NCBI GenBank assembly: GCA_013415865.1
Contig: CP058896.1
Span: 700,921-764,920 of the forward strand
DNA length: 64,000 nucleotides
Direction of reading: 5' to 3'
Origin: Methanomassiliicoccales archaeon
GTDB taxonomy: Archaea > Thermoplasmatota > Thermoplasmata > Methanomassiliicoccales > UBA472
The notes under the pieces were generated by a model. That model ran no database searches and was not told the origin of the DNA. It was given only the letters and a program-made list of their open reading frames with translations. Shown piece by piece: positions 1 to 23,618 of the stretch (the stretch's first letter is position 1; each line of letters begins with the position of its first letter). A program made the translations under genes and the position numbers.

Positions 1-1897
1 TATGTGGTAGGAAGAGCGATGATGTGAACTTGTCGAAGAACGTGTTGTTGGTGGTCAGCTCAAGATATGTCATCCTTGAATAGATATCGACCGCCTCCTT
101 CCTCTTGGCTGCCGATAAGAGAGTGAGCCTTGCGCCCGCAAGTGCAGCGTTCCCTAGGAATACGAACCGTTCCCGTGGTATGTCAGGGAGCAGTCCTATC
201 CCCACGGCCTTCTCCACATCGATGTAATTCCCAAAGCCACCTGCGATATAGACCTTCCTGACATCATCGAACCTCATGTCCATGCTCTCCACCAGCACAT
301 CACATGCTGCATAGAGCGCCGCCTTGGTCCGTATGATGTTCACGATATCATCGTCGGTTATCACGATGTCCCTGCCCTGGACGGTCTTGGCGCCCCACAC
401 CCCGCTCTTCGCCTTCATGGCCAGGCTTATTGCGGTCTCCTTTGTCTCCTGAGCGAACGCCACCACGAACTCCCTTCCATTATCATTGGCGCGGACCCTC
501 CTGATCCTGATGTCCTGTATCTTCCCCTTTTTATCAATCACCCCGCGGAAAAAGAGCTCATGGACCACGTCGATGAGACCGGAGCCGCATATTCCTCTTG
601 GCTTGTCCCCTCTGATGGTCTGGTATGTGACCTCGAGGTCCTTATCGATCGATACCTTCTCTATGGCACCTGTCATCGCCCTCATTCCAGACGCGACCTC
701 TCCTCCCTCGAAGGCAGGTCCGGCCGAACAAGAGCATGAGACCATCCAGTCCCTGTTCCCAAGAACGACCTCGCCATTGGTCCCGACATCGATGAGCAAT
801 GATACCTCGTCCGAAAGATGCATCCCGCTCGCCAGGACGTCCGCGATGATGTCCCCGCCGACATAGCTCGCCCTTCCCGGGACAATGTAGACAGGGGCCT
901 CGGGATGTATCTTGATGTCCAGCTCTCTTGCCCTGTAAACAGGTGGGAGGTTGGTCACGGACACGTAAGGCTGATACCTTATCTGTTTAGGATGCAGTCC
1001 CATCAGAAGATGTATCATGGTGGTGTTCCCAGCAATTGCCATTGCTGTCACCTCCTCCCTGCATACCTTCTTATTGTCAGGTCTGCACACCTCCGATAGG
1101 ACGACCACCTGTGAGATCAGATAATCTATGCTCTCGAGGATGAGCTGACGGAGCCTTTCGAGACCTCCATCCTCAGCATATGCGATCCGGGCCAGCACAT
1201 CCTCTCCGCACATCACCTGCTTGTTGTGGTCCGAGGCCTGGGCCAATATCTTGCCGGTCCTCATGTCGATCAACGCCAGGACCACCGTGGTCGTCCCGAT
1301 GTCCAATGCTATCCCGAAGTTTCTGCCCGAGGTGTCCCAGTTATTGATGTCCACCAGGGCAGGACGACAGTTGACCCTGTCGACGACGGCGGTGACCCTC
1401 CAACCGCTGTCCCGGACTATCTTCGGAAGGTCCCTTAGCATATCCAATGATATGTGAAGGTCTCCATCCTTGAGGCCAAGGGACGCGCTCAACCTCTCAA
1501 CGTCCCCGCGGTTGTCATCTAGCGAGGGCGGTGGTATCTCGATGTACTCTGCCGTGGTCATCGGTGAGATGTCCCTGACCTCTCCAGCAACGAAGCCCTC
1601 GAATATCTGAAGGTCCTCCACCCTAGAGCCCTCTGGAACAAAAATTGCCGAGTCCCCGACCACTTTTGCGGTGCACGCGAGCCTCCATCCCCTCTCCCAA
1701 TCCTCCTTCGAGATGGAATCTGACATCGGCCCTTGGACCGGCCCTTCGACCAGCACCTTGCATCGGCCGCATTCACCCTTTCCACCGCAGGCGCTGTTGA
1801 TCTCGACCCCTGCCAGGAAAGCGGCCTCTAGGACCGTTGTCGGTCCATCAAGGGTGATGTCGACGTTCTTGGGAAAGAACCTGACCTGAAAGCTCAT
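1..1897 (-). CDS. ASKHA-domain reductive activator of corrinoid proteins (RACo/AcsV-like), 3' end runs off the window
   Basis: Missing from the ORF track because there is no stop in the window. Manual translation from the ATG at 1897 gives MSFQVRFFPKNV...SACGGKGECGRCKV ([2Fe-2S] motif), internal DIGTT, DVGTNGE, GPAFEG, GICGSG and AGGFG, and C-terminal FTSSLFLPH. Confidence 0.9.
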   Translation of the reverse strand, partial: MSFQVRFFPKNVDITLDGPTTVLEAAFLAGVEINSACGGKGECGRCKVLVEGPVQGPMSDSISKEDWERGWRLACTAKVVGDSAIFVPEGSRVEDLQIFEGFVAGEVRDISPMTTAEYIEIPPPSLDDNRGDVERLSASLGLKDGDLHISLDMLRDLPKIVRDSGWRVTAVVDRVNCRPALVDINNWDTSGRNFGIALDIGTTTVVLALIDMRTGKILAQASDHNKQVMCGEDVLARIAYAEDGGLERLRQLILESIDYLISQVVVLSEVCRPDNKKVCREEVTAMAIAGNTTMIHLLMGLHPKQIRYQPYVSVTNLPPVYRARELDIKIHPEAPVYIVPGRASYVGGDIIADVLASGMHLSDEVSLLIDVGTNGEVVLGNRDWMVSCSCSAGPAFEGGEVASGMRAMTGAIEKVSIDKDLEVTYQTIRGDKPRGICGSGLIDVVHELFFRGVIDKKGKIQDIRIRRVRANDNGREFVVAFAQETKETAISLAMKAKSGVWGAKTVQGRDIVITDDDIVNIIRTKAALYAACDVLVESMDMRFDDVRKVYIAGGFGNYIDVEKAVGIGLLPDIPRERFVFLGNAALAGARLTLLSAAKRKEAVDIYSRMTYLELTTNNTFFDKFTSSLFLPH

Positions 1898-2097
1898 ACT
1901 GACCGAATCTGAGCCCAGGCTATTTATTGTTCGGGTATCGGACAGGGACCGGAGCTGTGATGTCGAAAGAGGCGTACCTCTATCATAATGGAAAGGATAA
2001 GGGCCTGAGAACAAATGGACATAGGTCTCGCACATCATCATAGGCAGGTGGTCGCAGGGAGCGGCACCCTACTGGGCATTTCCACTGGCCCCCACCA

Positions 2098-2670
2098 TCA
2101 TTTTTTCATGAACTTCCTGCCACAGGTGAAGGCCTTCATCAGCTCTTCGCCGATGTTGAAGTAAGAGGACGAGCCAGGGCTGTAGATGAGGGGCCTTATC
2201 TTCTCGATGACGGGGCTTCCATCTATGAGGCAGTCGTCCTCTACCTTGACATCGACGATCTCGCCGATGAACTGGGTATGGAGACCTAGCTCATGGATGC
2301 CCACGACCTTGCACTCCAGCACGACCGGGAACTCGCGGACGAAGGGCGCATTGACGCGCTCGGCCCTCTCAGGGGTAAGACCTGTGTCCTCGAACTTGTC
2401 CGTATCCCTCCCGCTTGCAATGCCAAGATAGTCCACCTCCTCCACATGCTCGTCCGATGGGATGGAAACAGTGAATGCCATCCCCTCCATCAGATTGGAA
2501 TATGTGTAGGTCGCCTTCCTGAGCGATATGGCGACACAGGGTGGGACCGAACAGCATATCCCTCCCCATGCAACCACCATTGCGTTCGGTCTCCCCTCGC
2601 GGTCATATGTCCCTACCACCATCACAGGTGTAGGGTAGAGCAACGTCCTAGCACCGATCGACCTCTTCAT
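2098..2670 (-). CDS. Flavin reductase family protein (flavoredoxin-like)
   Basis: YPTPVMVVGT, GRDTDKF, LECKV and HTQFIGEIV motifs. Start moved to MKRSIG. Confidence 0.85.
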   Translation of the reverse strand: MKRSIGARTLLYPTPVMVVGTYDREGRPNAMVVAWGGICCSVPPCVAISLRKATYTYSNLMEGMAFTVSIPSDEHVEEVDYLGIASGRDTDKFEDTGLTPERAERVNAPFVREFPVVLECKVVGIHELGLHTQFIGEIVDVKVEDDCLIDGSPVIEKIRPLIYSPGSSSYFNIGEELMKAFTCGRKFMKK

Positions 2671-3790: not shown

Positions 3791-5344
3791 TCAATGCCGG
3801 AATATCCTGACCCCGGTGAAGACCATCGCCATGCCGTGCTCATCGGCTGCCTGTATCACCTCGGCGTCCCGTATGGAGCCACCTGGCTGGATCACCGCTG
3901 TCACCCCTGCCTTGGCCGCCTCATCGATGCCGTCCCTGAAGGGGAAGAACGCGTCCGAGGCCATTACCGATCCCTTGGCCTCCTCCTTCGCCTTGTGCGC
4001 AGCTATCATCGACGAGTCCACCCGGGACATCTGACCTGCTCCTATGCCCACCACCCTCTCTCCCTTTGCCAGGATGATGGCGTTGGACCACACATGCTTA
4101 CACACCTTCCAGGCGAAGAGCATCGAGTGGACCTCTTCCTTTGTAGGGGCGCGCTTGGTCACGACCTTCAGCATCGACTCGTTCACTTCGACATGTCTGT
4201 TGGTCTGGACAAGGATGCCTCCCTTGACCTTCTTCATCTTGTGCTCAGGTCTTTCGTCGATGGTGATCGGGGCATTGGTCCTAAGGAGCCTAACGTTCTT
4301 CTTTTTCTTTAAGTGCTCGAGTGCATCATCGTCATAGTCCGGCGCGATGACGCAGTCCACGAAATGCGAGCCAATCTGCTCCGCTGTGGCCATGTCGACC
4401 TTCCTGTTGAGCCCGATGACGCAACCGAAGGCTGCCAAGGGGTCCACATTGTACGCCGTCACGAACGCATCTACGAGCCTGTCCGCCGATGCCACACCGC
4501 ATGGATTTGTATGCTTTATCACGACCGCGGTGGGTCGAGAGAACTCCCTTACGAGCTCCATCGCCGACTCGAGGTCCAATATGTTGTTGTAAGAGATCTC
4601 CTTTCCATGCAGCTTTTCCGCACGGGACACTGAGACCCCCTCCGAGAACGGGTCGATGTAGAAGGAGGCTGTCTGCTCTGGGTTCTCCCCATAGCGGAGG
4701 TCGAACGCCTTCTCCATCCCGATGTTCAGGGTCGAAGGGAATTCGTCCGAAGGGAATTTCCTCCCTAGGAAATTCGCGATGAGACAGTCATAGTTCGCCG
4801 TGGTACGGAAGGCCTCGAGCATCAATCGTTTCCTCGTCTCCAATGAAAGTGTACAACCGTTCAGTCTCATCTCATCATATACGGACCGATATCTGGATGG
4901 GTCGGTCACGACCGCCACGCTCTGATAGTTCTTCGCAGCCGCCCTGATCATCGACGGCCCCCCGATATCTATGTTCTCGATGATCTGCTCAATGTCATTC
5001 GGGTCCTTCAATACCGTCTCCTTGAAAGGATAAAGGTTGACGACGACCATGTCGATGGTCTTGATCTTCATCTTCTCTACCTGGGCCATATGGTCGACAG
5101 AGTCTCGCCGTGCAAGGATACCGCCGAATATCAGGGGGTGCAACGTCTTGACCCTGCCCTCTAACATCTCCGGGAAGCCTGTGACCTCGCTTATCCCGGT
5201 CGTCTCGATACCGTTCTTCCTCAAAAGCGTGGCAGTACCACCTGTCGATATGATCTCCACACCCAGGTCGCTCAGCCCCTTTGCAAAGTCCACAATGCCG
5301 TCCTTGTTGGACACGCTTATGACAGCACGTTCGATCCTTGACAA
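3791..5344 (-). CDS. purH: Bifunctional AICAR transformylase/IMP cyclohydrolase (folate-dependent)
   Basis: ISTGGT, GRVKTLHP, IDIGGPSMIRAAAKN, LRYGENP, KHTNPCG and ASDAFFPF; TTG start with GGAGG SD. Confidence 0.97.
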   Translation of the reverse strand: MSRIERAVISVSNKDGIVDFAKGLSDLGVEIISTGGTATLLRKNGIETTGISEVTGFPEMLEGRVKTLHPLIFGGILARRDSVDHMAQVEKMKIKTIDMVVVNLYPFKETVLKDPNDIEQIIENIDIGGPSMIRAAAKNYQSVAVVTDPSRYRSVYDEMRLNGCTLSLETRKRLMLEAFRTTANYDCLIANFLGRKFPSDEFPSTLNIGMEKAFDLRYGENPEQTASFYIDPFSEGVSVSRAEKLHGKEISYNNILDLESAMELVREFSRPTAVVIKHTNPCGVASADRLVDAFVTAYNVDPLAAFGCVIGLNRKVDMATAEQIGSHFVDCVIAPDYDDDALEHLKKKKNVRLLRTNAPITIDERPEHKMKKVKGGILVQTNRHVEVNESMLKVVTKRAPTKEEVHSMLFAWKVCKHVWSNAIILAKGERVVGIGAGQMSRVDSSMIAAHKAKEEAKGSVMASDAFFPFRDGIDEAAKAGVTAVIQPGGSIRDAEVIQAADEHGMAMVFTGVRIFRH

Positions 5345-6886: not shown

Positions 6887-7663
6887 ATGTACATCATCAG
6901 CGAGCGTATCAATGGGCTTTTCACATCGGTCGGAAGGGCCATCGACAGGAGAGATGCCAAATGGATACAGGACCATGCGCTCCATCAGGTCGAATGCGGG
7001 GCACAGGCACTTGACATCAACGTCGGTCCAGGTAGAGAGGATGGCCCTGCCGCGATGGATTGGCTCATCAGGACGGTTCAGGATGTCACAGACGTCACAC
7101 TCTGCATCGACACGCCCGGTGTGAAGACCATGGCAGCTGGCCTCAAGGCTGCAAAGAACAAGACGATAATGAACTCGACCACCGCAGAGAAGAAGAAGAT
7201 GGATGCTTTGTTTCCGCTCTGCAGGGAATATGGTTCAGACCTGATATGTCTGACGATGGACGAGAAGGGCATCCCGAACGATTCCTCTTCGAGGGCGGAG
7301 CTTGCCATGCTCATGATAACCACGGCCATGGAACATGAGATAATGCCAGACCGATTATTGTTGGACCCTCTGGTGCTGCCGACCAAGGCGGCGCAGGACC
7401 AGGGGATCAAGGTGATCAAGGCGATCGAGATGTTCCAGGCATTGAACGACCCGCCGATAAGGACCGTGGTCGGGCTGAGCAACATATCGAACGGTTGCAA
7501 GGACCGCCAACTTGTCAACAGGACCTATCTCGCCATGCTGATGGGGGCTGGCCTCAGCGCCGCCATCCTAGATCCAGAGGACAAGGCGCTGATGGACACG
7601 ATAAAGACGGCCCGGGTTCTCCGGAACGAGATGCTCTATTGTGACGATTATTTGAGGGCGTGA
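6887..7663 (+). CDS. acsE: Methyltetrahydrofolate:corrinoid methyltransferase (AcsE-like, pterin-binding TIM barrel)
   Basis: MYIISERING, ALDINVG, LCIDT, LDPLVLP, VGLSNIS and NRTYLAM. Start reassigned to the ATG at 6887. Confidence 0.85.
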   Translation: MYIISERINGLFTSVGRAIDRRDAKWIQDHALHQVECGAQALDINVGPGREDGPAAMDWLIRTVQDVTDVTLCIDTPGVKTMAAGLKAAKNKTIMNSTTAEKKKMDALFPLCREYGSDLICLTMDEKGIPNDSSSRAELAMLMITTAMEHEIMPDRLLLDPLVLPTKAAQDQGIKVIKAIEMFQALNDPPIRTVVGLSNISNGCKDRQLVNRTYLAMLMGAGLSAAILDPEDKALMDTIKTARVLRNEMLYCDDYLRA

Positions 7664-7829: not shown

Positions 7830-8072
7830 TCAATTGTCGTCCCCCTTGATCATTCTAACGATCTCTTCTTTTTTTGGCACACGACCTGCTGAGACCGCCT
7901 CTCCATTGATGAACAAAGCGGGCGTGATCATTACGCCTTTGTCCATCATCGCTTGAAGGTCCTCTATCTTGACCACTTCCGCCTGGACCCCCATCTCCTT
8001 GACCGTTTCTGTCACCATCTGATAAAGTTTCCGACACTTTGCGCATCCTGTTCCATATATCTCGATCTTCAT
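7830..8072 (-). CDS. Small thioredoxin-like redox protein (ars-associated)
   Basis: GTGCAKC and GVMITPAL; lies downstream of the permease. Confidence 0.85.
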   Translation of the reverse strand: MKIEIYGTGCAKCRKLYQMVTETVKEMGVQAEVVKIEDLQAMMDKGVMITPALFINGEAVSAGRVPKKEEIVRMIKGDDN

Positions 8073-8133
8073 TCTTTCATCTCCCATTCTTTAATATTTA
8101 TGATGTTTTATATTATTTGATTTTGCAACCCTT

Positions 8134-9210
8134 TCACCCCGTAATATATCCAAAGGAGAGCCCGGCCAAGGTTGACATCAATATCACCAAGGCCCAGTAG
8201 ACAAGGGTCTTCTTCCATCCCATCACCTTTGAGAGGACAACTATGGAGGGGAGGCTGGTCGTGGGACCGGATAACAACAATACCAAAGCAGGTCCAGAGG
8301 CCATCGCCCCGCTTGTATAGCCCAAGGTCCCTCCGATTATTGGCACTTCCATCAAGGTCGGCATGTATAAAAGGGCCCCTATCACAGAGGCCAATAGATT
8401 CGACCAGATATTGTTATCCCCAAGATATGGTTTGAAGGTCTCGGGAGGTACAAAGTAAGAAAATACGCCGACGAAGAACGTACCGACCAGCAATATTGGG
8501 AATATCTTCTTGGTCAGGTCCCACGTCTCTGTCCCCCAATCGGTAACCTCCTCCCTGGTGAAATAATAGATCAGGAGAATGGCCACGCCCAGGGTCAGGA
8601 CATATATTATGGGCATCTTTATCATCCAGTCCAATGTTGAGGCGCCAAATACCAAGATGCCTATCAGAAAGATGAAGAAGATAGGTGTCGTCCATTTTGG
8701 TCTGCTGCTCTCATCCTTGAACTTTAGCATCGGCCTTTCATTGCTGGATCCCTCCGTTCCTTTTGTCTTGAACAAAAAGGACATCACCACGCCAACTACA
8801 ACTGACATGGCTATGGCAAAGATCGCCCTGGCCAGACCTAGATCGAGACCCAATATCTGCGCGGTATAGATCATCGCAAGGACATTGATGGCAGGACCGG
8901 CGAATAGGAAGGTTGTCGCAGGTCCGAGCCCGGCCCCTTTTTTATATATCCCTGCGAACAAAGGAAGAATGGTGCAGCTGCAGACTGCAAGTATCGTTCC
9001 CGATATGGAGGCCACAAAATAAGATTTATATTTTGCAACATTGGGCCCGAAGAACCTCAAGATCGCGTCCTTCTTCACCAACGCTGCGATCGCGCCTGCA
9101 ATGAAGAATGCTGGGACCAGACATGTCAGCACATGTTGGGCCAAATATTCGATCGAAGCATCCATACCGCTTTCCAACGGTCCTAACAGAAAATCCGTCG
9201 TATCACCCAC
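8134..9210 (-). CDS. ArsP/DUF318-type permease
   Basis: HVLTCLVPAFFIAG, AVCSCTILP and FLFAGPAIN; multiple TM segments. Confidence 0.85.
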   Translation of the reverse strand: MGDTTDFLLGPLESGMDASIEYLAQHVLTCLVPAFFIAGAIAALVKKDAILRFFGPNVAKYKSYFVASISGTILAVCSCTILPLFAGIYKKGAGLGPATTFLFAGPAINVLAMIYTAQILGLDLGLARAIFAIAMSVVVGVVMSFLFKTKGTEGSSNERPMLKFKDESSRPKWTTPIFFIFLIGILVFGASTLDWMIKMPIIYVLTLGVAILLIYYFTREEVTDWGTETWDLTKKIFPILLVGTFFVGVFSYFVPPETFKPYLGDNNIWSNLLASVIGALLYMPTLMEVPIIGGTLGYTSGAMASGPALVLLLSGPTTSLPSIVVLSKVMGWKKTLVYWALVILMSTLAGLSFGYITG

Positions 9211-9521
9211 CCCTGTTTGTCCGTCTTCCTTTTGGTCCGTCCCCAGACGAGAATCTCAATACCAAGCGACTTTGATCAAAATCCTGATAGGCCCCAAATG
9301 AATGGCCAAAAACGTCAGATGATAACTCGATTAGGTTCAGGTACCATTTAATCCTATAAATGGCCAATTGTAGTAGACCCAGTGACGCGGAGGTTTCAAA
9401 ATTATAACAACCTGATGGTTCTCTTTGCAGATATGTTGATGTTGCAGACCTGATGGATGAAATCGTGCACGTATTAGCCACCCCCGCCTTGTCGATATAT
9501 ACCTATTATTTTTCGGTTAAT

Positions 9522-9541
9522 ATTTCAATTATATTTGAAAT
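9522..9541. promoter_or_regulatory. Palindromic operator ATTTCAA-N6-TTGAAAT (putative ArsR-type site)
   Basis: Perfect 7-bp inverted arms in an AT-rich divergent promoter region; related copies at 9575, 9821, 11221 and 11625. Confidence 0.55.
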
Positions 9542-9866
9542 GTAAAAATTTAGGATGTTAAAATAGTTTTTCATTTTAAATTAGTTTGAAAATTCTCGTT
9601 AGGTTCGTGTCAAATAATCGACCAACTCAACAATTAAAATGTGTCAAGTCGCCCCCCCCCATGGAGGTCTTGTCGTGAAAATATAAATATAATATTATAA
9701 TAATATTAATTAGCCATATTATATTTACCCAGCGTAATCATCTGTTGATCAATGATGGCATGAAATATTCTCATGAGAATATCAAAAGGTCATGGATGGG
9801 CAACTCGCTAATAAGGATGTTTCAAATTATTTTAAATTGACGAATGGCATATAACGGGTAAAAGCG

Positions 9867-13012: not shown

Positions 13013-13014
13013 AT

Positions 13015-14411: not shown

Positions 14412-15320
14412 TCAACGGGGAAGAAGGCCCGCATCCTTCACGATCTCAGGTATTATCTCCTCCCATGCGACGGCCATCAAGTGAACGCCGTGGACCCCTT
14501 CTATGCCCTTGAGATGCTCGATCTGCTCGAGACATAACCTTGCTCCCTCTGCCTTTTGGTCCGAGGCCTTTTTCATCCTGTCGATTACCTCGTCGGGCAC
14601 GATCATCCCTGGGACCTTGTTCTTCATGTACAGGGCCGCCTTGTGCGATCTGATCGGCATCACCCCTGCCAAGATATGGGCCATCTCATGGAGGCCCATC
14701 GACCTCACCTGCCTCATCCAGGACTCGAACCTTCCGACATCATAGACTGCCTGGGTCTGGATGAAATCGGCCCCTGCCGCGACCTTTTTGGCCAGCCTCC
14801 TCGCCCGGTATTCGAATGGGTCGGCGAAGGGATTCGCGGCCGCTCCAAGGAAGAGCTTTGGGGGCTCCTCGAGCTTATCCCCTCCCCATACCTCTGCCTC
14901 GTCCCTCATCCTGCGAAAGATCATAAGCTGTTGGACAGGGTCGACGTCGTAGACGTTCTTGGCCTCTTTCTGGTTCCCGAACGATTGGTGGTCACCGCTT
15001 ATGCAGAGCACGTTCCTTATACCAAGCGCGCTCGCCCCGAGGATGTCCGACTGCATGGCTATCCTGTTCCTGTCCCTGCAGGTCATCTGTATGATCGGTT
15101 CCAGGCCCTCCTGGAGGCAGACCACCCCTGAGGCGATGCTCGAGAGCCGGACGATCGCTGTCTGATTGTCCGTAAGATTGAAAGCATCGGCGCTTCCCTT
15201 CATGACCCTCGCGTGCCTTCTGATGACCTCGGCGCTAGCTGACTTTGGTGGACCTATCTCTGCCGTGACCGCGAACCTTCCTTTCGAAAGAACGGCCTCC
15301 AGGTTGCTGCCCGCCTTCAT
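14412..15320 (-). CDS. metF: Methylenetetrahydrofolate reductase
   Basis: TAEIGPPK, NLTDNQTA, CRDRNRIAMQSDILGA and GADFIQTQ. Confidence 0.93.
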   Translation of the reverse strand: MKAGSNLEAVLSKGRFAVTAEIGPPKSASAEVIRRHARVMKGSADAFNLTDNQTAIVRLSSIASGVVCLQEGLEPIIQMTCRDRNRIAMQSDILGASALGIRNVLCISGDHQSFGNQKEAKNVYDVDPVQQLMIFRRMRDEAEVWGGDKLEEPPKLFLGAAANPFADPFEYRARRLAKKVAAGADFIQTQAVYDVGRFESWMRQVRSMGLHEMAHILAGVMPIRSHKAALYMKNKVPGMIVPDEVIDRMKKASDQKAEGARLCLEQIEHLKGIEGVHGVHLMAVAWEEIIPEIVKDAGLLPR

Positions 15321-16021
15321 CTCGATGCCCCCTTTGCCCTTTTCTCCTCATCGGTCAGCACTGCCTCTTTCCTGACGACCTTCCTTGGACCGCCGCTCCT
15401 GCTGGGCCGCCAATCCCTCGGTGGTATGGGGACATCCATCAGATCTGGACGGCCGAGCCTCTCAAGGCTGTTATATATCTGGTCCCATGCGCAAGGAACG
15501 TCAGGGCCGATCTCGCATCTGCCGCCCTGTGAGCCGCCGCAAGGACCGTTCATCAACGACTTGGAGCACCTGGCCACCGGGCATATCCCCCCTGTCAGAT
15601 GCAGGACGCAGTCCCCACATCCCCCGCATTTTTCAAGATAGATCCCATGTTCCTCTGGGGCCCCCATGTTAGAGGTGTTCAGGCCGGGGACCACCCTGAT
15701 GTCCGGGTACATTTCCTGGACCACCTGGGCACCGACCCCGCAGGCCAGGGAGATGATGCAATCCTTCCCTATGATGGCCTGCTCCAGCTGTGCCACGAAC
15801 TCCTTCTCACATGCCCGTTCCAAGGTCTCCTCCGATATATCCCACCCTTTTGACCTGAGGTCAGAGTGCAACCTCAACGCCTCTGAGAGGACGCCGACCT
15901 CCTTCTCCCCTCCGGCAAGACATATGGCCACGCATGACCTGCAGCCGACGACCAAGATCTCCCTGTGCCCTTCTATGATATCGATGAGCTCCTTGAGCTT
16001 CTTCTGCTCCCCTATGATCAT
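15317..16021 (-). CDS. metV: MTHFR Fe-S/Zn subunit MetV
   Basis: GCRSCVAIC, ACGVG and CGGCGDC...GGICPVARCSKSLMNGPCGG..C; overlaps the metF start. Confidence 0.9.
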   Translation of the reverse strand: MIIGEQKKLKELIDIIEGHREILVVGCRSCVAICLAGGEKEVGVLSEALRLHSDLRSKGWDISEETLERACEKEFVAQLEQAIIGKDCIISLACGVGAQVVQEMYPDIRVVPGLNTSNMGAPEEHGIYLEKCGGCGDCVLHLTGGICPVARCSKSLMNGPCGGSQGGRCEIGPDVPCAWDQIYNSLERLGRPDLMDVPIPPRDWRPSRSGGPRKVVRKEAVLTDEEKRAKGASR

Positions 16022-16022
16022 A

Positions 16023-16433
16023 CTAGGCCCTCCCTTCGAATACCGGCCCCAGCCTCGAGACGCGGGATGCCATCTCCCTTGCGGCCTCGGCGAAACGCCA
16101 TCCCTGGTTCGAAGCGATGTTGAACATCTCCACCCTCTCACCATCTATCCCTAGCTGCGATAGCAGCTCCCTCGCCTGCTCGACCCTTTTCCTTGCCTCG
16201 ATGTTACCGAACTGGTAATTGCAGTTCCCCTCGAGACATCCGACGACCATCACGGCATCGGCCCCATCCCTAAAGGCCTTGATGATATGTTTTACATCAA
16301 CCCTTCCAGTGCAGGGAACGCGGACCGGTATCACGGATGATGGATATTCCTGACATGTGGCACCTGCCATGTCGGCCGCCGAATATCCACAGAATGAGCA
16401 TACTAGAGCTACGATCCTCAGATCAGATGCCCC
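16023..16433 (-). CDS. mvhD: MvhD-like [2Fe-2S] subunit (start ambiguous; possibly fused to the upstream HdrA-like gene)
   Basis: RIVALVCSFCGYSAADMAG, VPCTGRV and GCLEGNCNY. The conserved N-terminus extends upstream of the ATG at 16370 with no ATG/GTG/TTG start. Confidence 0.85.
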   Translation of the reverse strand, partial: GASDLRIVALVCSFCGYSAADMAGATCQEYPSSVIPVRVPCTGRVDVKHIIKAFRDGADAVMVVGCLEGNCNYQFGNIEARKRVEQARELLSQLGIDGERVEMFNIASNQGWRFAEAAREMASRVSRLGPVFEGRA

Positions 16434-18078
16434 CTATCGATGCTTTGATCTGCTCCTCTATCTGATCGTCCCTGAAGGAGCTCAACTGGATCGCCTTGCT
16501 CGGGCATGCGCTGGCGCAGATACCGCAGCCCTGGCATCTGGACTCTTCTATCATCGCCTTCCCCTCAGGACCGATCGAAGGCGCACCATAAGGGCATACC
16601 CTGGCACAGGTCAGGCAGCCAGAGCATTTTTCCTGCCACACCTCCGCCTTCTCCCCTTCATCGAGAATGTCGCCTGCCAGCAGCGCCGATGCCTTGGCGA
16701 CCGCCGACCTGGCCTCCAAGCTCGGCCCTATCCCAAGGCTTCTCTCTACCGCAGTTCCGCAGATGAAAACCCCTTCTTTCAAAGATGATGATGGTTTGAG
16801 CTTCGCATTCGGTCTTCTCAACCTCCCATTGTCATCCAACGGGAGCCCGAGCGCCCTGGCCGTCCCATGCATATCAGGCACCTTTGTGATGTTGTCGATG
16901 ACCACCATGTCATGATCGATCTCAAGGGTCCCGCCTAGGCCAACATCGCGGACCAGCATCTTGCCCTCTACTGTCATGTCAGGCATGGAGTCGGTCCTGA
17001 TGATGATCACGCCCAACTCCTGTGCACGGCGATAGCCGTGCTCGCACTGGCCCAGTGCGAAGACCTCGCGCGTGATTATGTAGACGACCGTCCTCGGCGC
17101 CATGCTTTTGAGATAAAGGGCATTGTGCACCGCCTCATGGGTGGACAACGGGTCGAACGCGCTCTCCCCGGCATCGTCCATGGCCAACATGACCACTGTT
17201 CCGTTTGGCCTGTTGCCCGAGCGGAGCATCTCCTCGAGCTGTCTCTGGTCTATGACATTCCCTTTTATCTTTGACCGAAGAGGGTTGTCCATGGGCACCT
17301 CATCCATCGCGACGATGACCGCCCCTGCGGTCAAGGCCACCTCGCCGAGAGGTGTTCCGACCCGAATTTGAAGGTCTCCAAGACCTCCCTCAGCGCTGAT
17401 GACCTCCGATGATGTCGATATCGCAAAGGACCTTCCCGCCTTCCTGCAGAACGCTTCGAACCCGTCCTCCTCGAGCGAGACCACCTCATCGTCATGTCCT
17501 TCGTCCCCGAGCCGCTCTGAGGGGCAGATGAGCGTCACCTCATGACCCAGGGCGACCGCCTCTCTGGACGCGACCTTGGCGCTGTTACCATTACCTATGA
17601 TCAATATCGAGCTGTTGACCTTCTTATTTCTGCTGGAGGGTGTTGGTTGCAGCATCATGCACCTTCTCAAGGAACCTCGGAGCATCATCTTGGCCTTGGC
17701 CGTTGCTTCGGGCACACCATGGACCAATGCGGAATGCTCCTTGATGTTGCACACCTCGACCAGCGACCGGTCCAGACCTGCCTCTGTCGCCAACCGTTTG
17801 AACCGTCCGATAGAGATCTTATAAGAGCAACCTGCGACGATGAACCGGTCGACCTCGCCGGAGAGGAGGGAGAGGCGCATCCTGTCCTTATCCTCCCCTT
17901 CACAACAATTTTCGAGCACCTCGGCCGACCTGACATGCTGGAACATCAGCATGTCCTCCTTTAATGCTTCCAGATCGATCCTCCTGGCCACATCTCCCTT
18001 GCATCCACAGAGGAACACCGCCACCCCCTTCGGCGGGGACAATGGCGCGTGGGGCCCGTCTGGAGATGGTGGTATCAT
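16423..18078 (-). CDS. HdrA/QmoB-like Fe-S flavoprotein homolog, degenerate FAD site
   Basis: HdrA N-domain (VFLCGC, IVAGCS, NIKEH), weak IIGNGNSA dinucleotide motif, GVFICGT, and C-terminal 2x[4Fe-4S]. Confidence 0.8.
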   Translation of the reverse strand: MIPPSPDGPHAPLSPPKGVAVFLCGCKGDVARRIDLEALKEDMLMFQHVRSAEVLENCCEGEDKDRMRLSLLSGEVDRFIVAGCSYKISIGRFKRLATEAGLDRSLVEVCNIKEHSALVHGVPEATAKAKMMLRGSLRRCMMLQPTPSSRNKKVNSSILIIGNGNSAKVASREAVALGHEVTLICPSERLGDEGHDDEVVSLEEDGFEAFCRKAGRSFAISTSSEVISAEGGLGDLQIRVGTPLGEVALTAGAVIVAMDEVPMDNPLRSKIKGNVIDQRQLEEMLRSGNRPNGTVVMLAMDDAGESAFDPLSTHEAVHNALYLKSMAPRTVVYIITREVFALGQCEHGYRRAQELGVIIIRTDSMPDMTVEGKMLVRDVGLGGTLEIDHDMVVIDNITKVPDMHGTARALGLPLDDNGRLRRPNAKLKPSSSLKEGVFICGTAVERSLGIGPSLEARSAVAKASALLAGDILDEGEKAEVWQEKCSGCLTCARVCPYGAPSIGPEGKAMIEESRCQGCGICASACPSKAIQLSSFRDDQIEEQIKASIGGI

Positions 18079-19307
18079 TTCCTCCCCTCCAGGTATTTCT
18101 TCACCTTTGCGGCGGCGACGGCCCCTTCCATCGAGCTTTCCTCGATGTCCTTAGGGCCAGCGCATGTGCCGGCGAACACCACTCCCTTCTCCTCGAGCGT
18201 CCTCGCCTGCCTGCCCTCTGAGAAAAAGAAACCATGGGGATTGAGCTTTGCGCCGATGGTCTCAGCGATCTCCTCGTTATGCGGCGAAGGTCTCATCCCG
18301 ACGGACAGTACCACTAGGTCAAAGGCCTCCTCCACCACACCAAGATCGCCGGGAAGGGCATATCTCATTACGGGGCGACCGTCATCTCCAGTGAACACCT
18401 CGGAGGGCCTCGACCTTATTGCCCTGACGCCCTTCTCGAGAGAGGCCCATTCGAGAAGGTCGTCCCCCCTCTCCAAGGGTCGCCAGTCCATGAAGGTGAA
18501 GGTGATCTCGGTGGCCGGCGACATGGCCTTTATGAGCTTAGCTATCTTCATCGAATATTTGCAGCAGACCTTGGAACATAGATGCGCACCGAACCTGGCA
18601 TCCCGGGAACCGACACATTGGATGAAACAAATTTTCCCGGGCCTGCCTGAAGCTATCCTCCTGCCAAGCTCGTCCATTTTTCCGATGCCTCTTTCAACCT
18701 CCAGGGAGGTCACTACGCCATCGACCACGCCATAGCCTAGCCTCCTGTCGGCGGACGGGTCGAACGGTACCGAGCCTATGGCCACTATGATCGCGTCCGC
18801 CTCGACCTCCAATGTCTCCTCCTCTCCCTCAAGGTCTATTGCCCCCTGAGGACAGGCCACTGAGCATTCCTCACACCCGTTCCTTGTATGAGCGCACCTT
18901 TCCTGGTCGATGCAGAAGAAAATGCCCTCCCTTGCACTGTACATTGTGATCGCTGAGCCTTTGCATGCTTCCATGCATCTTCCACACCTGGTGCATATCT
19001 CATCATCGACCAGCTTGGACCGGGACAATGTCGCTCTATACCTACCGGACCTTCTTTCCAACATCTCGAGCTTTGAGTCCTTGATGGTGATGATTTCATC
19101 CGACCCTGCCACGATCGCGACCTTGTCCGTCGCCAGGCAGACGTCACATCTGACACATTGTCTGACGCCCTTGCAGGCCAGTTCATTCGCGGTCCCTCCG
19201 ATGCATGGCGATCTTTCGACCAGGATGGGGCTGAATCCGAACCTAGCAAGAGCAAGCGCGGCAGAGATGCCTGTCGTCCCACCGCCCAATATCAGGACGT
19301 GGGCCAA
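18075..19307 (-). CDS. HdrA/QmoA-like FAD/Fe-S protein
   Basis: ILGGGTTGISAA, inserted ferredoxin domain, IQCVGSRD...CSKVCC and GPKDI; TTG start after GGAGGGG. Confidence 0.85.
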   Translation of the reverse strand: MAHVLILGGGTTGISAALALARFGFSPILVERSPCIGGTANELACKGVRQCVRCDVCLATDKVAIVAGSDEIITIKDSKLEMLERRSGRYRATLSRSKLVDDEICTRCGRCMEACKGSAITMYSAREGIFFCIDQERCAHTRNGCEECSVACPQGAIDLEGEEETLEVEADAIIVAIGSVPFDPSADRRLGYGVVDGVVTSLEVERGIGKMDELGRRIASGRPGKICFIQCVGSRDARFGAHLCSKVCCKYSMKIAKLIKAMSPATEITFTFMDWRPLERGDDLLEWASLEKGVRAIRSRPSEVFTGDDGRPVMRYALPGDLGVVEEAFDLVVLSVGMRPSPHNEEIAETIGAKLNPHGFFFSEGRQARTLEEKGVVFAGTCAGPKDIEESSMEGAVAAAKVKKYLEGRK

Positions 19308-19473
19308 GCTAATCCCCTCCTGTCCCAAGATATTGTCCGCATCTACCTTCTCTCAATCGCTTACCAACCATTCGGACCCTGGACCGCATATAAAATATTT
19401 ATGAGGGCCGGGGAAGATGGCCTTCGGTCGTCAAAGATAGGATTATCTACATCCGCATGGTTCAGAACGTTAT

Positions 19474-20313
19474 ATGCGACGGTGCTCGATCACGGTCGAT
19501 GTCGACAGGGATGTGAACCAGGCGGTCGCTGGCAAGGTATGTGCGATATCTATGGAAAAAGATGGCAGCACCGAGCCGAGGTTCAGCTCTTCTGCCAAAG
19601 GACTTGAGGTGATCGTGGATGTCCTCAACGGTCTGGATGTCCAAGGTACTTTCTTTTTTGAGGCCAGGACGGCAATTGAAATATCTAAGGTCATTGACCT
19701 GCCCTCCTTGATGAGGGGGCATGAGGTCGCTTGCCATGGATATGACCATGAGGATCTTACTGGGCAAAAGACAGGGTCTCCATTGGGACCTGGAGAATTG
19801 GACGACATCCTTGAGAGGTCGATCTCAGTGGTCCGAGAGCTTTTCGGGGTGTCCCGCATGGGTTTCAGGGCACCGTACCTCTCTTGTGATGACCTCGTCG
19901 AGAAAGAGCTTGTGAAAAAGGATTTCATCTATGATTCTTCAAAGGTGACCTCCTTGAGCAACGGCGTCATCGGACCGTTCATCACTGAGAACGGCATCGT
20001 AGAGGTGCCAGTTGCCTCTGGGACGGACGCGGATGGAAAGAAGATCGTAGGGTATCTATGGCCGATGCATGAGGGAAAAAGGAAGGTGGGGGACTATATC
20101 CATCTGATGGGGCAGTTCGAGGATGGCCTCTTGGTCTTCGCGACGCATAGCTGGCATATGGTCGAGAACTTCTGTTCGGGTCTGCTCTGCGCCACAGATT
20201 CAAGGGCGCAGAGGGACAACCTTCATGAGCTCATCTCCAAAGGCATGGACATGGGCCTTGAGTTCGTCAGGGTCGATGACCACCTGTTTGAGCATGGACC
20301 GAGGGCCTTATGA
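19474..20313 (+). CDS. Polysaccharide deacetylase (NodB-like) family protein
   Basis: ITVDVD, GTFF, HEVACHGYDH, GFRAPY and YDSS. Confidence 0.85.
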   Translation: MRRCSITVDVDRDVNQAVAGKVCAISMEKDGSTEPRFSSSAKGLEVIVDVLNGLDVQGTFFFEARTAIEISKVIDLPSLMRGHEVACHGYDHEDLTGQKTGSPLGPGELDDILERSISVVRELFGVSRMGFRAPYLSCDDLVEKELVKKDFIYDSSKVTSLSNGVIGPFITENGIVEVPVASGTDADGKKIVGYLWPMHEGKRKVGDYIHLMGQFEDGLLVFATHSWHMVENFCSGLLCATDSRAQRDNLHELISKGMDMGLEFVRVDDHLFEHGPRAL

Positions 20314-20939
20314 AGAGCGCACGGCAAGGAGAGATGTGCTATCTCCCTTCCTTGGAAAGGGCATGGGACATGCTGGCGGACCTGGACCTTAGAGTGGCGG
20401 CCGAAAGGGCCGGCGGACGGGCCGAAGGGTCCATGATATTGATAAGGATGCTCAATGGCGAGGCGTCCATCGAACCAGGAAGGAGAAGGATCGAATGTAA
20501 TGTTCCAGGCTCTGGGTTCCTCCTCGAAATAGTGGTCCTGCATTACGTGAAAGGATGCCTGGACAACGCCCCATCGAAAGGGAAGGAATGGCTGCTCTTC
20601 AGACAATTGCCGGGCGGGGAGGTGTTCCAGCCCGCGTTCCAAAAGAGGGTCGTCCAAGGGATCGCCAAGAGGTTCTCTTCCCGGCCCGATGAACTTTTGA
20701 GGGCCGGTCTCTCCCTAGGTGGAAGAAAGGAAGATCTCGGCGATGCGACGGTGGTGCTTCCTTTCTTTCCTAGGCTCGAGGTCAGGGTCACGGTGTGGGA
20801 GGGTGACGATGAGGTGCCTGGCAGTGCGACGCTCCTCTTCTCTCCAGAGACGCCGTCCTTGCTCCCGACCGAGGACCTGACCGAGGTGGGAGAGGTCGTT
20901 CTTTCCGCCCTTTTAAAGGCCGTCAATAAAGGCCGGTGA
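20310..20939 (+). CDS. DUF3786-like protein
   Basis: VVLHY, W..FRQLPGG..F, FPRL and WEGDDE....ATLLF....LPTEDL. Confidence 0.75.
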   Translation: MKSARQGEMCYLPSLERAWDMLADLDLRVAAERAGGRAEGSMILIRMLNGEASIEPGRRRIECNVPGSGFLLEIVVLHYVKGCLDNAPSKGKEWLLFRQLPGGEVFQPAFQKRVVQGIAKRFSSRPDELLRAGLSLGGRKEDLGDATVVLPFFPRLEVRVTVWEGDDEVPGSATLLFSPETPSLLPTEDLTEVGEVVLSALLKAVNKGR

Positions 20940-22596
20940 TCTTCCCGTTCTCGTCGATGTCCATCTTCAATGCCGCCGGCTCCGAGGGCAGACCGGGGAT
21001 CAGCATGATCTGCCCGCATATCGGCACGACGAACCCCGCACCGGCGGAGACACGGACCTCTCTCACCTTCAAAGTCCATCCGCGGGGGGCGCCCTTCAAT
21101 TTTGGATTGTCGGTTATCGACAGCTGGGTCTTCGCCATGCAGATCGGAAGGTTACCATAACCAGACTGTTCTATCAGCTTCAGGTTCCTCTCGGCCTCGC
21201 CCTCGAAGATGACGTCCGCCGCACCATAGATCTCGGTGGCGATGGTCTTTATCTTCTCCCTTAGAGGACGGTCCGAGGAGTACAGCAATCTGAACTCGCA
21301 GGGCTCGTTCTCAAGGACGTCGAGGACCGCCTCAGCGAGCTCCCTCCCTCCCTTTCCACCTTCTGCAAAGACCCTGGACACGGCGCATCTCACGCCCTTG
21401 TCCTTGCAATGCCTCCTCACGAGGTCTATCTCTTCCTGGGTATCTGTATCAAAGAAGTTGATCGCCACAACGACCGGTACGCCGAACTTGCGTATGTTCT
21501 CGATGTGCTTGTCGAGGTTCTCGAAGCCCTTCCTGAGAGTGAGGCAATCACCTTTGCATATCTGGTCCAGCGTGGCGCCTCCGTGCATCTTGAGGGCCCT
21601 GATGGAGCACACGATCACCGCGCAATCGGGCCTCAGGCCGTTGCTCCTGCACACGATGTTGAAGAACTTCTCTGCACCAAGGTCGGCTGCGAACCCCGCC
21701 TCTGTCACCACTATGTCAGCGAGCTTCAGGGCATACTTGGTCGCGATGATGGAATTATTACCGTGGGCGATGTTGGCGAACGGGAACCCATGGATGAAGA
21801 AGGGATCACCCTCCAATGTCTGGACCAGGTTGGGGCTCAGCGCATCCTTAAGCAACATGGCCATCGCCCCCACGCAGCCCAACTGCGATGCGGTGACGGG
21901 CTTCCCCTGGTAGGTGTAGGCTACGATTATCTTGCCAAGCCTCTCCTTGAGGTCGGACATTGAGGTCGACAGTGCCAATACCGCACTTATCTCGGAGGCG
22001 GCCGTCACGATGAACGACGATTCGTGCGGCGTTCCGCCCTCGGTCCGGCCGCCGAGACCTACAACAATGTTCCTCAGCTCGCGACAGTTCATGTCCATGG
22101 CCTTGCTCAGGACGATCCTTGTCGGGTCTATACCGAGCGAATTGTCCCTGGATACGTGGTTCTCAAGGACCGCGGAAAGGAGGTTGTGCGCTGCTGCGAC
22201 GGCGTGTATGTCGCCAGTGAAATGCAGGTCTATGTCCCACATGGGATAGACCTGAGAATAGCCACCACCGGTCGCCCCTCCCTTGATGCCGAAGATGGGG
22301 CCCAGTGACGGTTCTCTCAACGCCCCCATGACCTTCTTGTCCATTCTGCCGAGGGCCTGCACCAGCCCTATGGTGGTGACGGTCTTTCCCTCCCCTGCGG
22401 GAGTGGGGGTGATCGCCGTCGTCAGGACCAATTTACCGTTCGGCCTTTGGTCGAACCGCTTCAGAACGTTCAATGGGACCTTTGCAATGTATCTTCCATA
22501 AGGTATGATCTCTGATTCTTGGATGCCCAACTTCTCAGCTATGTCACCGATGGGCCATGCTTTCGCATCCTGGGCTATCTCGATGTTCGACCTCAT
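20923..22596 (-). CDS. fhs: Formate--tetrahydrofolate ligase
   Basis: TPTPAGEGKT, LREPSLGP, GGATGGG, PFANIAHG, EAGFAADLGAEKF and CMAKTQ. Confidence 0.97.
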   Translation of the reverse strand: MRSNIEIAQDAKAWPIGDIAEKLGIQESEIIPYGRYIAKVPLNVLKRFDQRPNGKLVLTTAITPTPAGEGKTVTTIGLVQALGRMDKKVMGALREPSLGPIFGIKGGATGGGYSQVYPMWDIDLHFTGDIHAVAAAHNLLSAVLENHVSRDNSLGIDPTRIVLSKAMDMNCRELRNIVVGLGGRTEGGTPHESSFIVTAASEISAVLALSTSMSDLKERLGKIIVAYTYQGKPVTASQLGCVGAMAMLLKDALSPNLVQTLEGDPFFIHGFPFANIAHGNNSIIATKYALKLADIVVTEAGFAADLGAEKFFNIVCRSNGLRPDCAVIVCSIRALKMHGGATLDQICKGDCLTLRKGFENLDKHIENIRKFGVPVVVAINFFDTDTQEEIDLVRRHCKDKGVRCAVSRVFAEGGKGGRELAEAVLDVLENEPCEFRLLYSSDRPLREKIKTIATEIYGAADVIFEGEAERNLKLIEQSGYGNLPICMAKTQLSITDNPKLKGAPRGWTLKVREVRVSAGAGFVVPICGQIMLIPGLPSEPAALKMDIDENGKITGLY

Positions 22597-22730
22597 CGTC
22601 CTGCCACTCCCTGTTCTCGCATATTGAACCTTTTATTAAATACTCATCATGTCCTGGCGAGGTTCTCCATTGTAAACGCCTTGACCAAGATTAATAATAG
22701 CCCATCATCATTTTCGCGCGGAGATATGCG

Positions 22731-23618
22731 ATGACGGCTCGTTTGATAGATGGTAACGTTGTTGCGGAGGCCATAAGGTGCGATCTAAGGGAGAAGGTCT
22801 CTAAGCTGGCCTCAAAAGGGGTCCGTCCCGGTCTCGCCGTCATCATAGTCGGGGAGGACCCTGCCTCCCAGACATATGTAAGGATGAAAGAGAAGGAATG
22901 CTCCGATCTGGGCATCCTTTCAAGGACCATAAGGTTACCGACGGACACAAGGGAGGAGGAATTGTTGTCCATCATCGATGACCTGAACATCGACGATGAG
23001 GTCCATGCAATGCTCGTCCAGATGCCCCTACCAAAGCAGATAGACCCGCAGAAGGTCATCATGAGGATCGCCCCGGAGAAGGATGCGGACGGGTTTCATC
23101 CAGTGAACGTAGGGAAGATGCTCATCGGCGACAGGTCAGGTTTTCTGCCATGCACCCCGCATGGGATCCAGGTCATGATGGAGCGCTCGGGGGTAATGAC
23201 CGAGGGGAGGCACGTGGTAATCTGTGGGAGGAGCAACATAGTCGGAAAGCCCATGGCCGCCCTACTCATGCAGAAGGGCAAGGGAGCGGATGCCACCGTG
23301 ACCGTCTGTCACTCTAGGACCAGGGACCTGGCCCATCACACAAGACAGGCAGACATCCTGATCGTGGCCATGGGGGTCCCTGGATTCATTAAACAGGACA
23401 TGGTCAAGGAAGGGGCGGTGGTCATTGATGTCGGCATGAACCGTGTCGAGGACCCGACATCAAAAAAAGGGTATAGGCTGGTAGGGGACGTGGACTTTGA
23501 AGAGGTGAGCAAGAAGGCCTCTGCGATAACTCCTGTGCCCGGGGGTGTTGGCCTGATGACAAGGGTGCTGCTCATGGAGAACACGATAAAGGCCGCCGAG
23601 AACAGTCTTGCCAAATAA
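22731..23618 (+). CDS. folD: Methylene-THF dehydrogenase/cyclohydrolase
   Basis: YVRMK, KDADGFHP, PCTP, GRSNIVGKP and ITPVPGGVG. Confidence 0.97.
   Translation: MTARLIDGNVVAEAIRCDLREKVSKLASKGVRPGLAVIIVGEDPASQTYVRMKEKECSDLGILSRTIRLPTDTREEELLSIIDDLNIDDEVHAMLVQMPLPKQIDPQKVIMRIAPEKDADGFHPVNVGKMLIGDRSGFLPCTPHGIQVMMERSGVMTEGRHVVICGRSNIVGKPMAALLMQKGKGADATVTVCHSRTRDLAHHTRQADILIVAMGVPGFIKQDMVKEGAVVIDVGMNRVEDPTSKKGYRLVGDVDFEEVSKKASAITPVPGGVGLMTRVLLMENTIKAAENSLAK

Follow-up and report, generated by a model that had tools for sequence, protein, structure and literature searches.

A conserved acetogen-type gene block in a methanol-reducing Methanomassiliicoccales archaeon as a probable biosynthetic methyl and one-carbon hub

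The window analyzed here is a whole stretch of 64,000 nucleotides (G000:C1:700921-764920) from contig CP058896.1 of a Methanomassiliicoccales archaeon, where G000 denotes the source genome, a single contig of 1.82 Mb. Its first 24 kb carry fhs, folD, metV-metF, an acsE-like gene, a gene for a RACo-type activator, a DUF3786 gene and purH, each present where a preliminary description made from the sequence alone had placed it. That description missed hdrA1, hdrA2 and mvhD, as well as acsB, acsD, acsC, cooC and mesB, which lie to the left of the window. With these genes, the one-carbon block spans 30.6 kb and extends beyond the left window edge. A chimeric contig, named earlier as a possible refutation, is rejected: the assembly is one contig with 99.77% completeness and 0.77% contamination, its sole run of N (100 N) lies at the contig end, and the gene order is kept in relatives. 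The main members of the block are as follows, with coordinates in the window unless prefixed by G000:C1; H4F stands for tetrahydrofolate, CODH for carbon monoxide dehydrogenase, ACS for acetyl-CoA synthase and CoFeSP for the corrinoid iron-sulfur protein AcsCD.

G000:C1:693967-696153, plus strand: acsB, 728 aa, stand-alone, without a CODH part (NF040764, 969 bits, above cut-off)
G000:C1:696175-697131, plus strand: acsD (NF003376, above cut-off)
G000:C1:697133-698455, plus strand: acsC (NF003195, above cut-off)
G000:C1:698938-699684, minus strand: cooC/acsF-like ATPase gene, from P-loop family and position
G000:C1:699686-700708, minus strand: mesB, predicted MesB-type core methionine synthase, 340 aa, from homologue names, fold and zinc ligands
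1..1897, minus strand, running 58 bases past the left edge: acsV/RACo, ATP-dependent corrinoid reactivase (PF14574 at E 1e-95, PF17651, PF17650, Fer2; 591 bits against NF040756, below its cut-off of 800)
3791..5344, minus strand: purH, 10-formyl-H4F-dependent AICAR transformylase/IMP cyclohydrolase (NF002049 and TIGR00355, above cut-off)
6887..7663, plus strand: acsE, methyl-H4F:CoFeSP methyltransferase (NF005719, 287 bits, cut-off 259; the match begins at the annotated Met)
14412..15320, minus strand: metF, methylene-H4F reductase catalytic subunit (PF02219)
15317..16021, minus strand: metV, Fe-S/Zn subunit (PF12225)
16023..16421, minus strand: mvhD-like [2Fe-2S] subunit (NF045873)
16423..18078, minus strand: hdrA2, second half of a split double-module HdrA
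18075..19328, minus strand: hdrA1, first half of the split HdrA
20923..22596, minus strand: fhs, formate-H4F ligase (NF010030, 821 bits, cut-off 652)
22731..23618, plus strand: folD, methylene-H4F dehydrogenase/cyclohydrolase (PF02882, PF00763)

This inherited, acetogen-type block probably serves as a biosynthetic hub, providing methyl groups and one-carbon units for the synthesis of methionine and nucleotides in a cell devoid of CODH. The reading draws on gene order, the pattern of losses across the order, the ligands of ACS and the MesB candidate, and codon bias.

Gene order is conserved across the Methanomassiliicoccales, as the synteny comparison proposed in the preliminary description now indicates. 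Among cluster regions fetched from 19 relatives, seven carry the full order acsB-acsD-acsC/cooC/mesB/acsV...purH/acsE...metF-metV-mvhD-hdrA-hdrA...fhs/folD on one stretch, and in most of the others contig ends interrupt it or it falls into two blocks. Because the order recurs in this way, the clustering is not due to chance. purH lies inside the cluster in 17 of the 19 regions, and hdrA1-hdrA2-mvhD adjoins metVF in 16, two further regions being incomplete and one (G021) having metF alone. A wider record scan, covering 8 of 64 parts with 80 loci kept, recovered the run folD-fhs-hdrA-hdrA-mvhD-metV-metF-purH in seven Thermoplasmata/euryarchaeote records (L096-L098, L100-L102 and L105); the shorter run hdrA-mvhD-metV-metF turned up commonly among the bacterial records of that scan. 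Since relatives share the gene order and wider archaeal records share the folate run, the block is old and inherited rather than peculiar to G000. It is common to most free-living relatives.

The losses were followed in a census of 101 genomes of the order, G000 included, all at least 90% complete, with absence meaning no match with the query used. Kin are not independent, so the losses represent a few events and not 101 tests. AcsB has a match in 70 genomes, MesB in 66, AcsE in 57, MetF in 56, CooS in 51 and MtrA in 39. All 64 genomes with an orthologous AcsB (at least 53% identity) also have MesB. The six genomes of genus g23 with a divergent AcsB (34-35% identity) have none, and acsCD is missing as well in both loci fetched. 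In loci L205 and L208 (genomes G062 and G058), the divergent AcsB gene stands beside acsV and cooC, with no acsCD or mesB in the fetched stretch. Genera g22 (5/5) and g17 (1/1) keep AcsB and MesB, and AcsE, MetF, CooS and MtrA were not found there; the four loci fetched from these six genomes all carry acsB-acsD-acsC-cooC-mesB with intact A-cluster motifs, the layout known from Dehalococcoides. Both genomes of genus g12 have lost acsB and kept acsD, acsC, mesB and acsV, plus AcsE, MetF and MtrA. These reciprocal losses suggest that the step from CoFeSP to MesB is the fixed core of the module, with ACS and the folate branch as two interchangeable methyl inputs, both of which G000 keeps.

No CooS match was found in 22 of the 70 AcsB genomes, and CODH is for that reason dispensable for the ACS-CoFeSP-MesB module. 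By frame length, the 70 AcsB proteins comprise 19 fused to CooS, 12 with an extension of ~300 aa, 25 stand-alone forms (G000 included), 6 divergent and 8 fragmented ones. All B- and C-cluster ligand motifs are kept in seven of the nine CooS-AcsB fusions checked; the fusion of G014 has lost four CooS motifs and that of G009 nearly all, and both remain in frame. In the ~1000-aa forms, the extension is a weak CooS remnant in 4/4 checked. CODH loss is clean in G000, where only the AcsB part is left. Single-chain forms of ~1357 aa occur at L054:10028-14101 and in L060, L056, L081, L083, L061, L079, L072 and L069, and these single-chain CODH/ACS proteins offer a handy enzyme. Two additional Pfam domains, PF14528 and PF14890, appear in forms of ~1895 aa; we take them to be a homing endonuclease/intein. 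The fusion is also found in other archaea (172 matches, of which the best 120 were listed). The literature consulted, mostly open-access, yielded no account of the gene order across the 30 kb, of the reciprocal losses or of how the fusion decays; the supplements of PMC10804542, PMC7857596 and PMC6085437 may bear on them.

The product of the 340-aa frame has no match in Pfam and NCBIfam searches, and its homologues are named methionine synthase II. A structural model (pLDDT 88) finds MetE structures as its best Foldseek matches (E 2e-9, TM ~0.6); comparison with PDB by sequence was uninformative (best 3RPD at E 0.28). All 12 aligned sequences share His211, Cys213, Asp232 and Cys308 without exception, and these residues are spaced like the zinc ligands of Dehalococcoides mccartyi core-MetE. 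As in the MesB/core-MetE family, a single MetE barrel of ~340 aa carries His-Cys-Asp-Cys zinc ligands and lacks the folate-binding half. The MetH homocysteine domain and classical MetE were not found in G000 by searches whose controls matched. This orphan is predicted to be a MesB-type methionine synthase, the sole methionine-synthase candidate found in the genome. Passages of PMC7857596 state that Methanomassiliicoccales have MesB only and predict CoFeSP as its methyl donor. In the acetyl-CoA synthase itself, the A-cluster Cys motifs are intact, at residues 505-527 and 592-598, and the ACS cysteines are retained in 17/17 AcsB sequences checked.

metVF closes a co-oriented run, hdrA1-hdrA2-mvhD-metV-metF, from 19328 down to 14412. 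The metV cysteines are invariant in 46 aligned sequences. The mvhD product includes its N-terminal cysteine pair only if translation begins at the CTG at 16421; the proteins of relatives are ~134 aa long. Together, hdrA1 and hdrA2 are colinear with the 1013-aa main HdrA of G000, hdrA2 alone with its residues 455-1010. Order-wide matches to hdrA1 include the main HdrA as well and do not enter the counts given here. HdrA1 keeps the FAD motif, the [4Fe-4S] cysteines and residues matching Glu356 and Lys409 of 5ODC, the latter described as the FAD N5 partner in PMC6405883; the lysine is kept in 11 of 14 sequences and the other motifs in all 14. HdrA2 keeps its ferredoxin domains and has lost the flavin-side Cys/Lys motifs in 11/11 sequences. 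The same number (11/11) have GxGxxA/S in HdrA2 instead of GxGxxG, a pattern presumably typical of NADP-binding folds. Compared with the NfnB/GltD-type NADH-binding domain, HdrA2 gives only a weak NfnB-like match (22% identity, E 1e-4).

G000 is a methanol-specialist methanogen of the Methanomassiliicoccales type. It carries mcrA, mtaB, several MtaA-type proteins, MvhADG-HdrABC, HdrD-like proteins, mtrAH and an Fpo-like complex, and its nearest named proteins and records (no marker tree) are Methanomassiliicoccales, in line with the host proposed from the sequence. Profile searches whose positive controls matched gave no hits for Mch, Mtd or the Mer-type luciferase fold, nor for PF00384, which covers the molybdopterin oxidoreductases Fdh and Fwd/Fmd (Ftr was not profile-searched). 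This agrees with the earlier view that the host lacks the tetrahydromethanopterin methyl branch; of the four genes then expected to be absent, mer, mtd and mch were not found, and mtr is represented by mtrAH. With matching controls, neither an FNT formate channel nor pyruvate formate lyase was detected, leaving no formate source by the latter. MttB and MtmB gave no match (MtbB was not searched) and the ARAGORN listing contains no pyrrolysine tRNA, and methylamine use was rejected on these grounds. The only prismane-family protein is Hcp and was rejected as a CODH; a profile built from relatives' CooS matches nothing else in the open frames of G000. Of the catabolic inventory proposed for checking, mcrA, mtaB and AcsB were found, and CODH, Fdh, MtmB and MttB were not. 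Measured against a complete acetogen-type Wood-Ljungdahl pathway, G000 has Fhs, FolD, MetVF, AcsE, CoFeSP and ACS and lacks a detectable CODH and formate dehydrogenase. Also present are Acs, an ActP-like symporter, GlyA, Gcv, SerA, ThyX, FolP, FolC, a PurP-like ligase and NrdD. Energy metabolism likely remains H2-dependent methanol reduction, with acetate as the carbon source.

Codon bias was used as a proxy for expression, with 24 ribosomal-operon and elongation-factor genes as the reference and percentiles taken over 1546 genes. Sixteen catabolic genes lie at the 90th-100th percentile, compared with the 10th-89th (median 67) for 16 cluster genes, with no overlap (p 8e-7). The cluster does not differ from nine other biosynthetic genes (median 76, p 0.12). 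By this measure, the cluster belongs with the biosynthetic and not the catabolic genes. Acs, which activates acetate, reaches a catabolic level (96th percentile).

In the proposed mechanism, Acs would activate acetate, and ACS would split a small share of the acetyl-CoA into methyl-CoFeSP and CO, the CO leaving the cell. MesB would then methylate homocysteine from methyl-CoFeSP to give methionine. Alternatively, CoFeSP could be loaded by AcsE from methyl-H4F. MetVF, with MvhD and the split HdrA, would most likely reduce serine- or glycine-derived methylene-H4F to methyl-H4F with electrons that we infer to come from the H2/ferredoxin pool; this reduction by H2 is computed at -41 kJ. This direction is somewhat favored over methyl-H4F oxidation. 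FolD and Fhs may provide formyl-H4F and formate for purine synthesis (PurH in the cluster, the PurP-like ligase elsewhere), methylene-H4F would serve ThyX, AcsV would reactivate the corrinoid protein, and CooC would mature metal centers. The preliminary description had offered the feeding of methyl groups into ACS/CoFeSP and anabolism as its second option, and the evidence favors it. Physiology published for Methanomassiliicoccus luminyensis is compatible with this picture: PMC5688252 gives a methanol:CH4 ratio of 0.98 under H2, with ~84% of carbon from acetate.

Several points weigh against a biosynthetic hub. The HdrA-MvhD-MetVF module and MtrAH look costly for methionine alone, HdrA1 keeps its flavin-site residues, and the codon bias of fhs, acsC and mesB is rather high (86th-89th percentile). 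The directions of ACS and MetVF are not readable from sequence, and the transfer from CoFeSP to MesB is itself a prediction in print (PMC7857596). A motif search of G000 found neither PurN nor PurT, leaving one formyl step without an assigned enzyme. All absences mean no match with the query used, and G000 has a 100-N gap at the contig end. Several independent CODH losses are not shown by the AcsB tree: two changes suffice, and a single CODH-loss clade is not rejected (approximately unbiased (AU) test p 0.295). A quick tree of 37 AcsB rows had suggested three CODH-loss groups, and mixed CODH states within genera g1 and g6 are the only pointer to several losses.

If the block is a biosynthetic hub, the retention of an acetyl-CoA synthase by an acetate-using methanogen is explained, and CO release is predicted. 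Wood-Ljungdahl genes in these genomes would then not signify carbon fixation or aceticlastic growth. The reciprocal losses are a natural experiment against which the published prediction of transfer from CoFeSP to MesB can be tested.

A first alternative, unlikely on present evidence, has ACS working in the synthetic direction: methyl groups from methanol or folate on CoFeSP would be joined with CO from the surroundings to form acetyl-CoA, sparing acetate, with MesB as a side tap. In relatives with an intact CooS-AcsB fusion, the CO would be made from CO2. ACS chemistry is reversible, MtrAH and AcsE of G000 could bring the methanol methyl group to CoFeSP, and the intact single chains in seven of nine relatives checked amount to a methyl-plus-CO2 route on paper. 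However, G000 has no CODH for making CO, and in the six g22/g17 genomes that keep ACS without AcsE, MetF or MtrA being found, acetyl-CoA is the only known methyl input. The catabolic-level codon bias of Acs and the mostly acetate-derived biomass of M. luminyensis (PMC5688252) also argue against this direction.

A second alternative, overflow to methane, is distinctly improbable. Here, one-carbon units from serine, glycine, formate or the acetate methyl group would undergo reduction on H4F, and MtrAH would pass the methyl groups on to form methyl-CoM, as a minor co-metabolic methane source or redox valve. mtrAH lies near mcr in G000; the mtrA-mtrH pair is at G000:C1:212681-214373, and MtrH also matches the folate-using MtgA family, under cut-off. 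Gcv, GlyA and a tdh/kbl-like pair are present, and the reduction of methylene-H4F by H2 is downhill, as computed above. Yet MtrA is found in 39 of 101 genomes compared with 56 for MetF, and mtrAH codon bias is low. One-carbon entry through formate or acetate consumes 1-2 ATP, which exceeds the return expected from methyl reduction. Aceticlastic methanogenesis and CO2 fixation are both rejected in G000, as CODH and Fdh were not found and the carbonyl group cannot be oxidized without CODH.

The least probable reading, very unlikely in our judgment, is the H2-independent methyl disproportionation that the preliminary description had put first. In its fuller form, free-living Methanomassiliicoccales with MtrAH, split HdrA-MvhD-MetVF and NfnAB-Mvh would split methanol into formate and methane without H2, one formate per two methane, gaining ATP at Fhs. 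Methyl groups would reach H4F through MtrAH or MtaC/AcsE and be oxidized by MetVF, FolD and Fhs (with ATP formation); electrons would pass from MetVF through MvhD/HdrA to the CoM-CoB heterodisulfide, and from FolD-derived NADPH to NfnAB and a second Mvh hydrogenase. The proposal is kept as a candidate because every step has a candidate gene in G000 (mtrAH, hdrA-mvhD-metVF, two hdrBC pairs, NfnAB), and because HdrA-MvhD and NfnAB with the second MvhAG address the electron-carrier gap, between NAD(P)H and ferredoxin, listed in PMC6147122. The same source gives -203 kJ per reaction overall. NfnAB (best PDB matches 4YLF/4YRY and 5JCA) and the second MvhAG lie in one run (G000:C1:151497-157398). 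The step from methyl-H4F to the heterodisulfide comes to -12 kJ with a heterodisulfide potential of -140 mV, but would be uphill at about -280 mV. The other potential used, -200 mV, is from PMC8760232. Against disproportionation, the links it needs are among the lowest in codon bias: mtrA is at the 29th percentile, mtrH at the 16th, nfnA/B at the 16th and the second mvhG/A at the 6th/20th (6th-29th together), with hdrA1 at the 28th, metV at the 44th and folD at the 41st. An FNT channel and Fdh were not found in G000, hdrBC is missing from the cluster (both pairs lie outside it), and the cluster genes are retained in G012, G018, G023 and G027, where MtrA has no match. The HdrA parts are the least conserved of the block enzymes (median identity among relatives 34-44% compared with ~70% for MetVF), and metF stands without them in G021 and L107. 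Under H2, M. luminyensis yields one methane per methanol, and its growth on trimethylamine is reported to fail when H2 is absent (PMC5688252). Folate-based methylotrophic methanogenesis has been proposed, and a demonstration was not found in the literature consulted. If true, disproportionation would mean that this globally common order of methanogens could no longer be called "obligately H2-dependent". A biosynthetic hub remains the preferred reading of the block.

Other features of the window are the following.

7830..13950, no strand assigned: inserted arsenic/metal cassette, outside the one-carbon module (GC 0.47 compared with 0.57)
13015..13626, plus strand: mini-AcsC, 203 aa (PF03599; 28% identity to the AcsC C-terminal domain)
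19474..20313, plus strand: polysaccharide-deacetylase-family protein (PF01522; in 15/19 relatives' regions)
20310..20939, plus strand: DUF3786 protein (PF12654; in 11/19 relatives' regions)
32308..42648, minus strand: Fpo-like operon, catabolic context, outside the cluster (FpoB, C, D, H, I, K, L, M, N-like matches)

The last entry bears out the earlier mention of Fpo in the host. The arsenic cassette contains genes for thioredoxin, an ArsP-type permease, DUF6951, arsR, acr3, a CMD protein, mini-AcsC and a zinc-ribbon protein. Mini-AcsC combines a stub resembling the N-terminal Fe-S region of AcsC with an AcsC/HgcA-like corrinoid domain. It departs from AcsC, with the middle domain missing and the N-terminal [4Fe-4S] cysteines mostly lost, and from HgcA, with the cap-helix cysteine and membrane domain not in the alignment and 31 bits against NF040863 (cut-off 275). 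Matches occur in 33 of the 101 genomes, follow acr3 in 14/14 loci fetched and are in none of the 19 relatives' cluster regions. The gene and its corrinoid domain are thus as first described, but it does not belong to the folate set, and a role as methyl carrier of the folate branch was rejected on its link to acr3. The cassette acr3-[CMD]-mini-AcsC-zinc-ribbon is conserved (window 11675-13950; L188-L201), with an MtaA-like gene next in L190, L195 and L199. The corrinoid domain could bear on the dimethylarsenic demethylation by Methanomassiliicoccus reported in PMC10579292, in whose relevant passages no such gene is named.

Among further neighbors, a DUF2148 gene (5473-6006; 1/19 relatives' regions) and an RNase III-like gene slightly under cut-off (6154-6804; 4/19) lie between purH and acsE. 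Genes for birA, a carboxyltransferase, an OadA-like protein and a biotin carrier (G000:C1:688019-692371) adjoin the acs block in several relatives. A dehydrogenase and Kbl-family acyltransferase pair at 60302-62505 may break down threonine as a further glycine source, and lipA with pyruvate dehydrogenase E1 genes (G000:C1:67690-70635) would be a further acetyl-CoA source. Around the NfnAB pair, G000:C1:151497-157969 (L037) encodes an Fe-S/MvhD-like fusion, NfnA, NfnB, MvhG, MvhA and a likely maturation protease, with low codon bias; this run is a candidate NADP-reducing or bifurcating hydrogenase. The second hdrBC pair stands with mvhD and a further Fe-S gene at G000:C1:1285322-1288907, and additional HdrA fragments lie at G000:C1:375852-376880 and 389411-390541, one of the two as a fusion with MvhD. 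An Ehr/Ech-like membrane complex is encoded at G000:C1:223961-228975, with a large subunit that best matches NuoD/FpoD. Adjoining the mcr operon, hgcA and hgcB (G000:C1:196077-197364) score above NCBIfam cut-offs, making G000 a predicted mercury methylator.

The preliminary description had suspected that parts of this set were already reported. The cluster components and both functional ideas, disproportionation and MesB/CoFeSP anabolism, are indeed in print (PMC6147122, PMC7857596, PMC6085437). PMC6147122 (Speth and Orphan 2018) proposed 3 methanol to formate and 2 methane for MALP ("Lake Pavin"), as well as an aceticlastic hypothesis; it finds the C1-H4F pathway to be complete in MALP, M. 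luminyensis and M. intestinalis, describes mtrAH, and credits the oxidative use of the H4F branch for purines to Lang 2015. The H4F methyl branch of the order is also described in PMC10804542, and PMC11264602 reports methylene-H4F reductase (MTHFR) and folD in floodplain metagenome-assembled genomes and, for sister lineages that lack methyl-CoM reductase (MCR), the H4F branch alongside acsA-E. Like MALP and Methanomassiliicoccus (PMC6147122; PMC10804542), G000 is methanol-only, with methylamine methyltransferases not found, and has mtrAH, the H4F branch, Fpo and no Fdh. It also has MtrAH, the full H4F branch and the NAD(P)H-ferredoxin link of the MALP disproportionation model, with neither catabolic-level expression (by the codon-bias proxy) nor a formate exit. 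Unlike MALP, G000 lacks CODH, which eliminates the aceticlastic option. MALP is said to be without a ferredoxin:NADP reductase, and here G000 differs through its NfnAB pair. Nowhere in the passages on MALP are the genes presented as a single conserved cluster.

The type IV MTHFR of Moorella thermoacetica, HdrCBA-MvhD-MetVF in the classification of PMC8760232, shares with G000 the hdrA-mvhD-metV-metF run, in which metVF adjoins mvhD and hdrA, and the HdrA flavin-site residues. G000 differs in having no hdrBC in the run, a split HdrA, a degenerate second module and no clear NADH-binding domain. A MetFV-MvhD-Hdr set ("Met") was found in M. intestinalis (PMC6085437). For the single-chain CooS-AcsB, a row of Supplementary Table 1 of PMC6344411 lists OGS41472.1 as "fused with ACDS beta subunit"; relatives of G000 have this fusion as well, and G000 itself has the AcsB part only.

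The closest parallel to the ACS side of the block is the incomplete Wood-Ljungdahl pathway of D. mccartyi, for which PMC7005905 describes core-MetE and a route from acetate to methionine. Like G000, it has ACS without CODH, CoFeSP, the MesB zinc site and Acs-activated acetate (PMC7005905; PMC7857596). By spacing, His122 of the CBDB1 enzyme corresponds to Gln118 in G000 MesB. The full Dehalococcoides layout is seen in six relatives (genera g22 and g17), where AcsE and MetF were not found. As described in those sources, D. mccartyi lacks AcsE and MetVF, whereas G000 keeps both.

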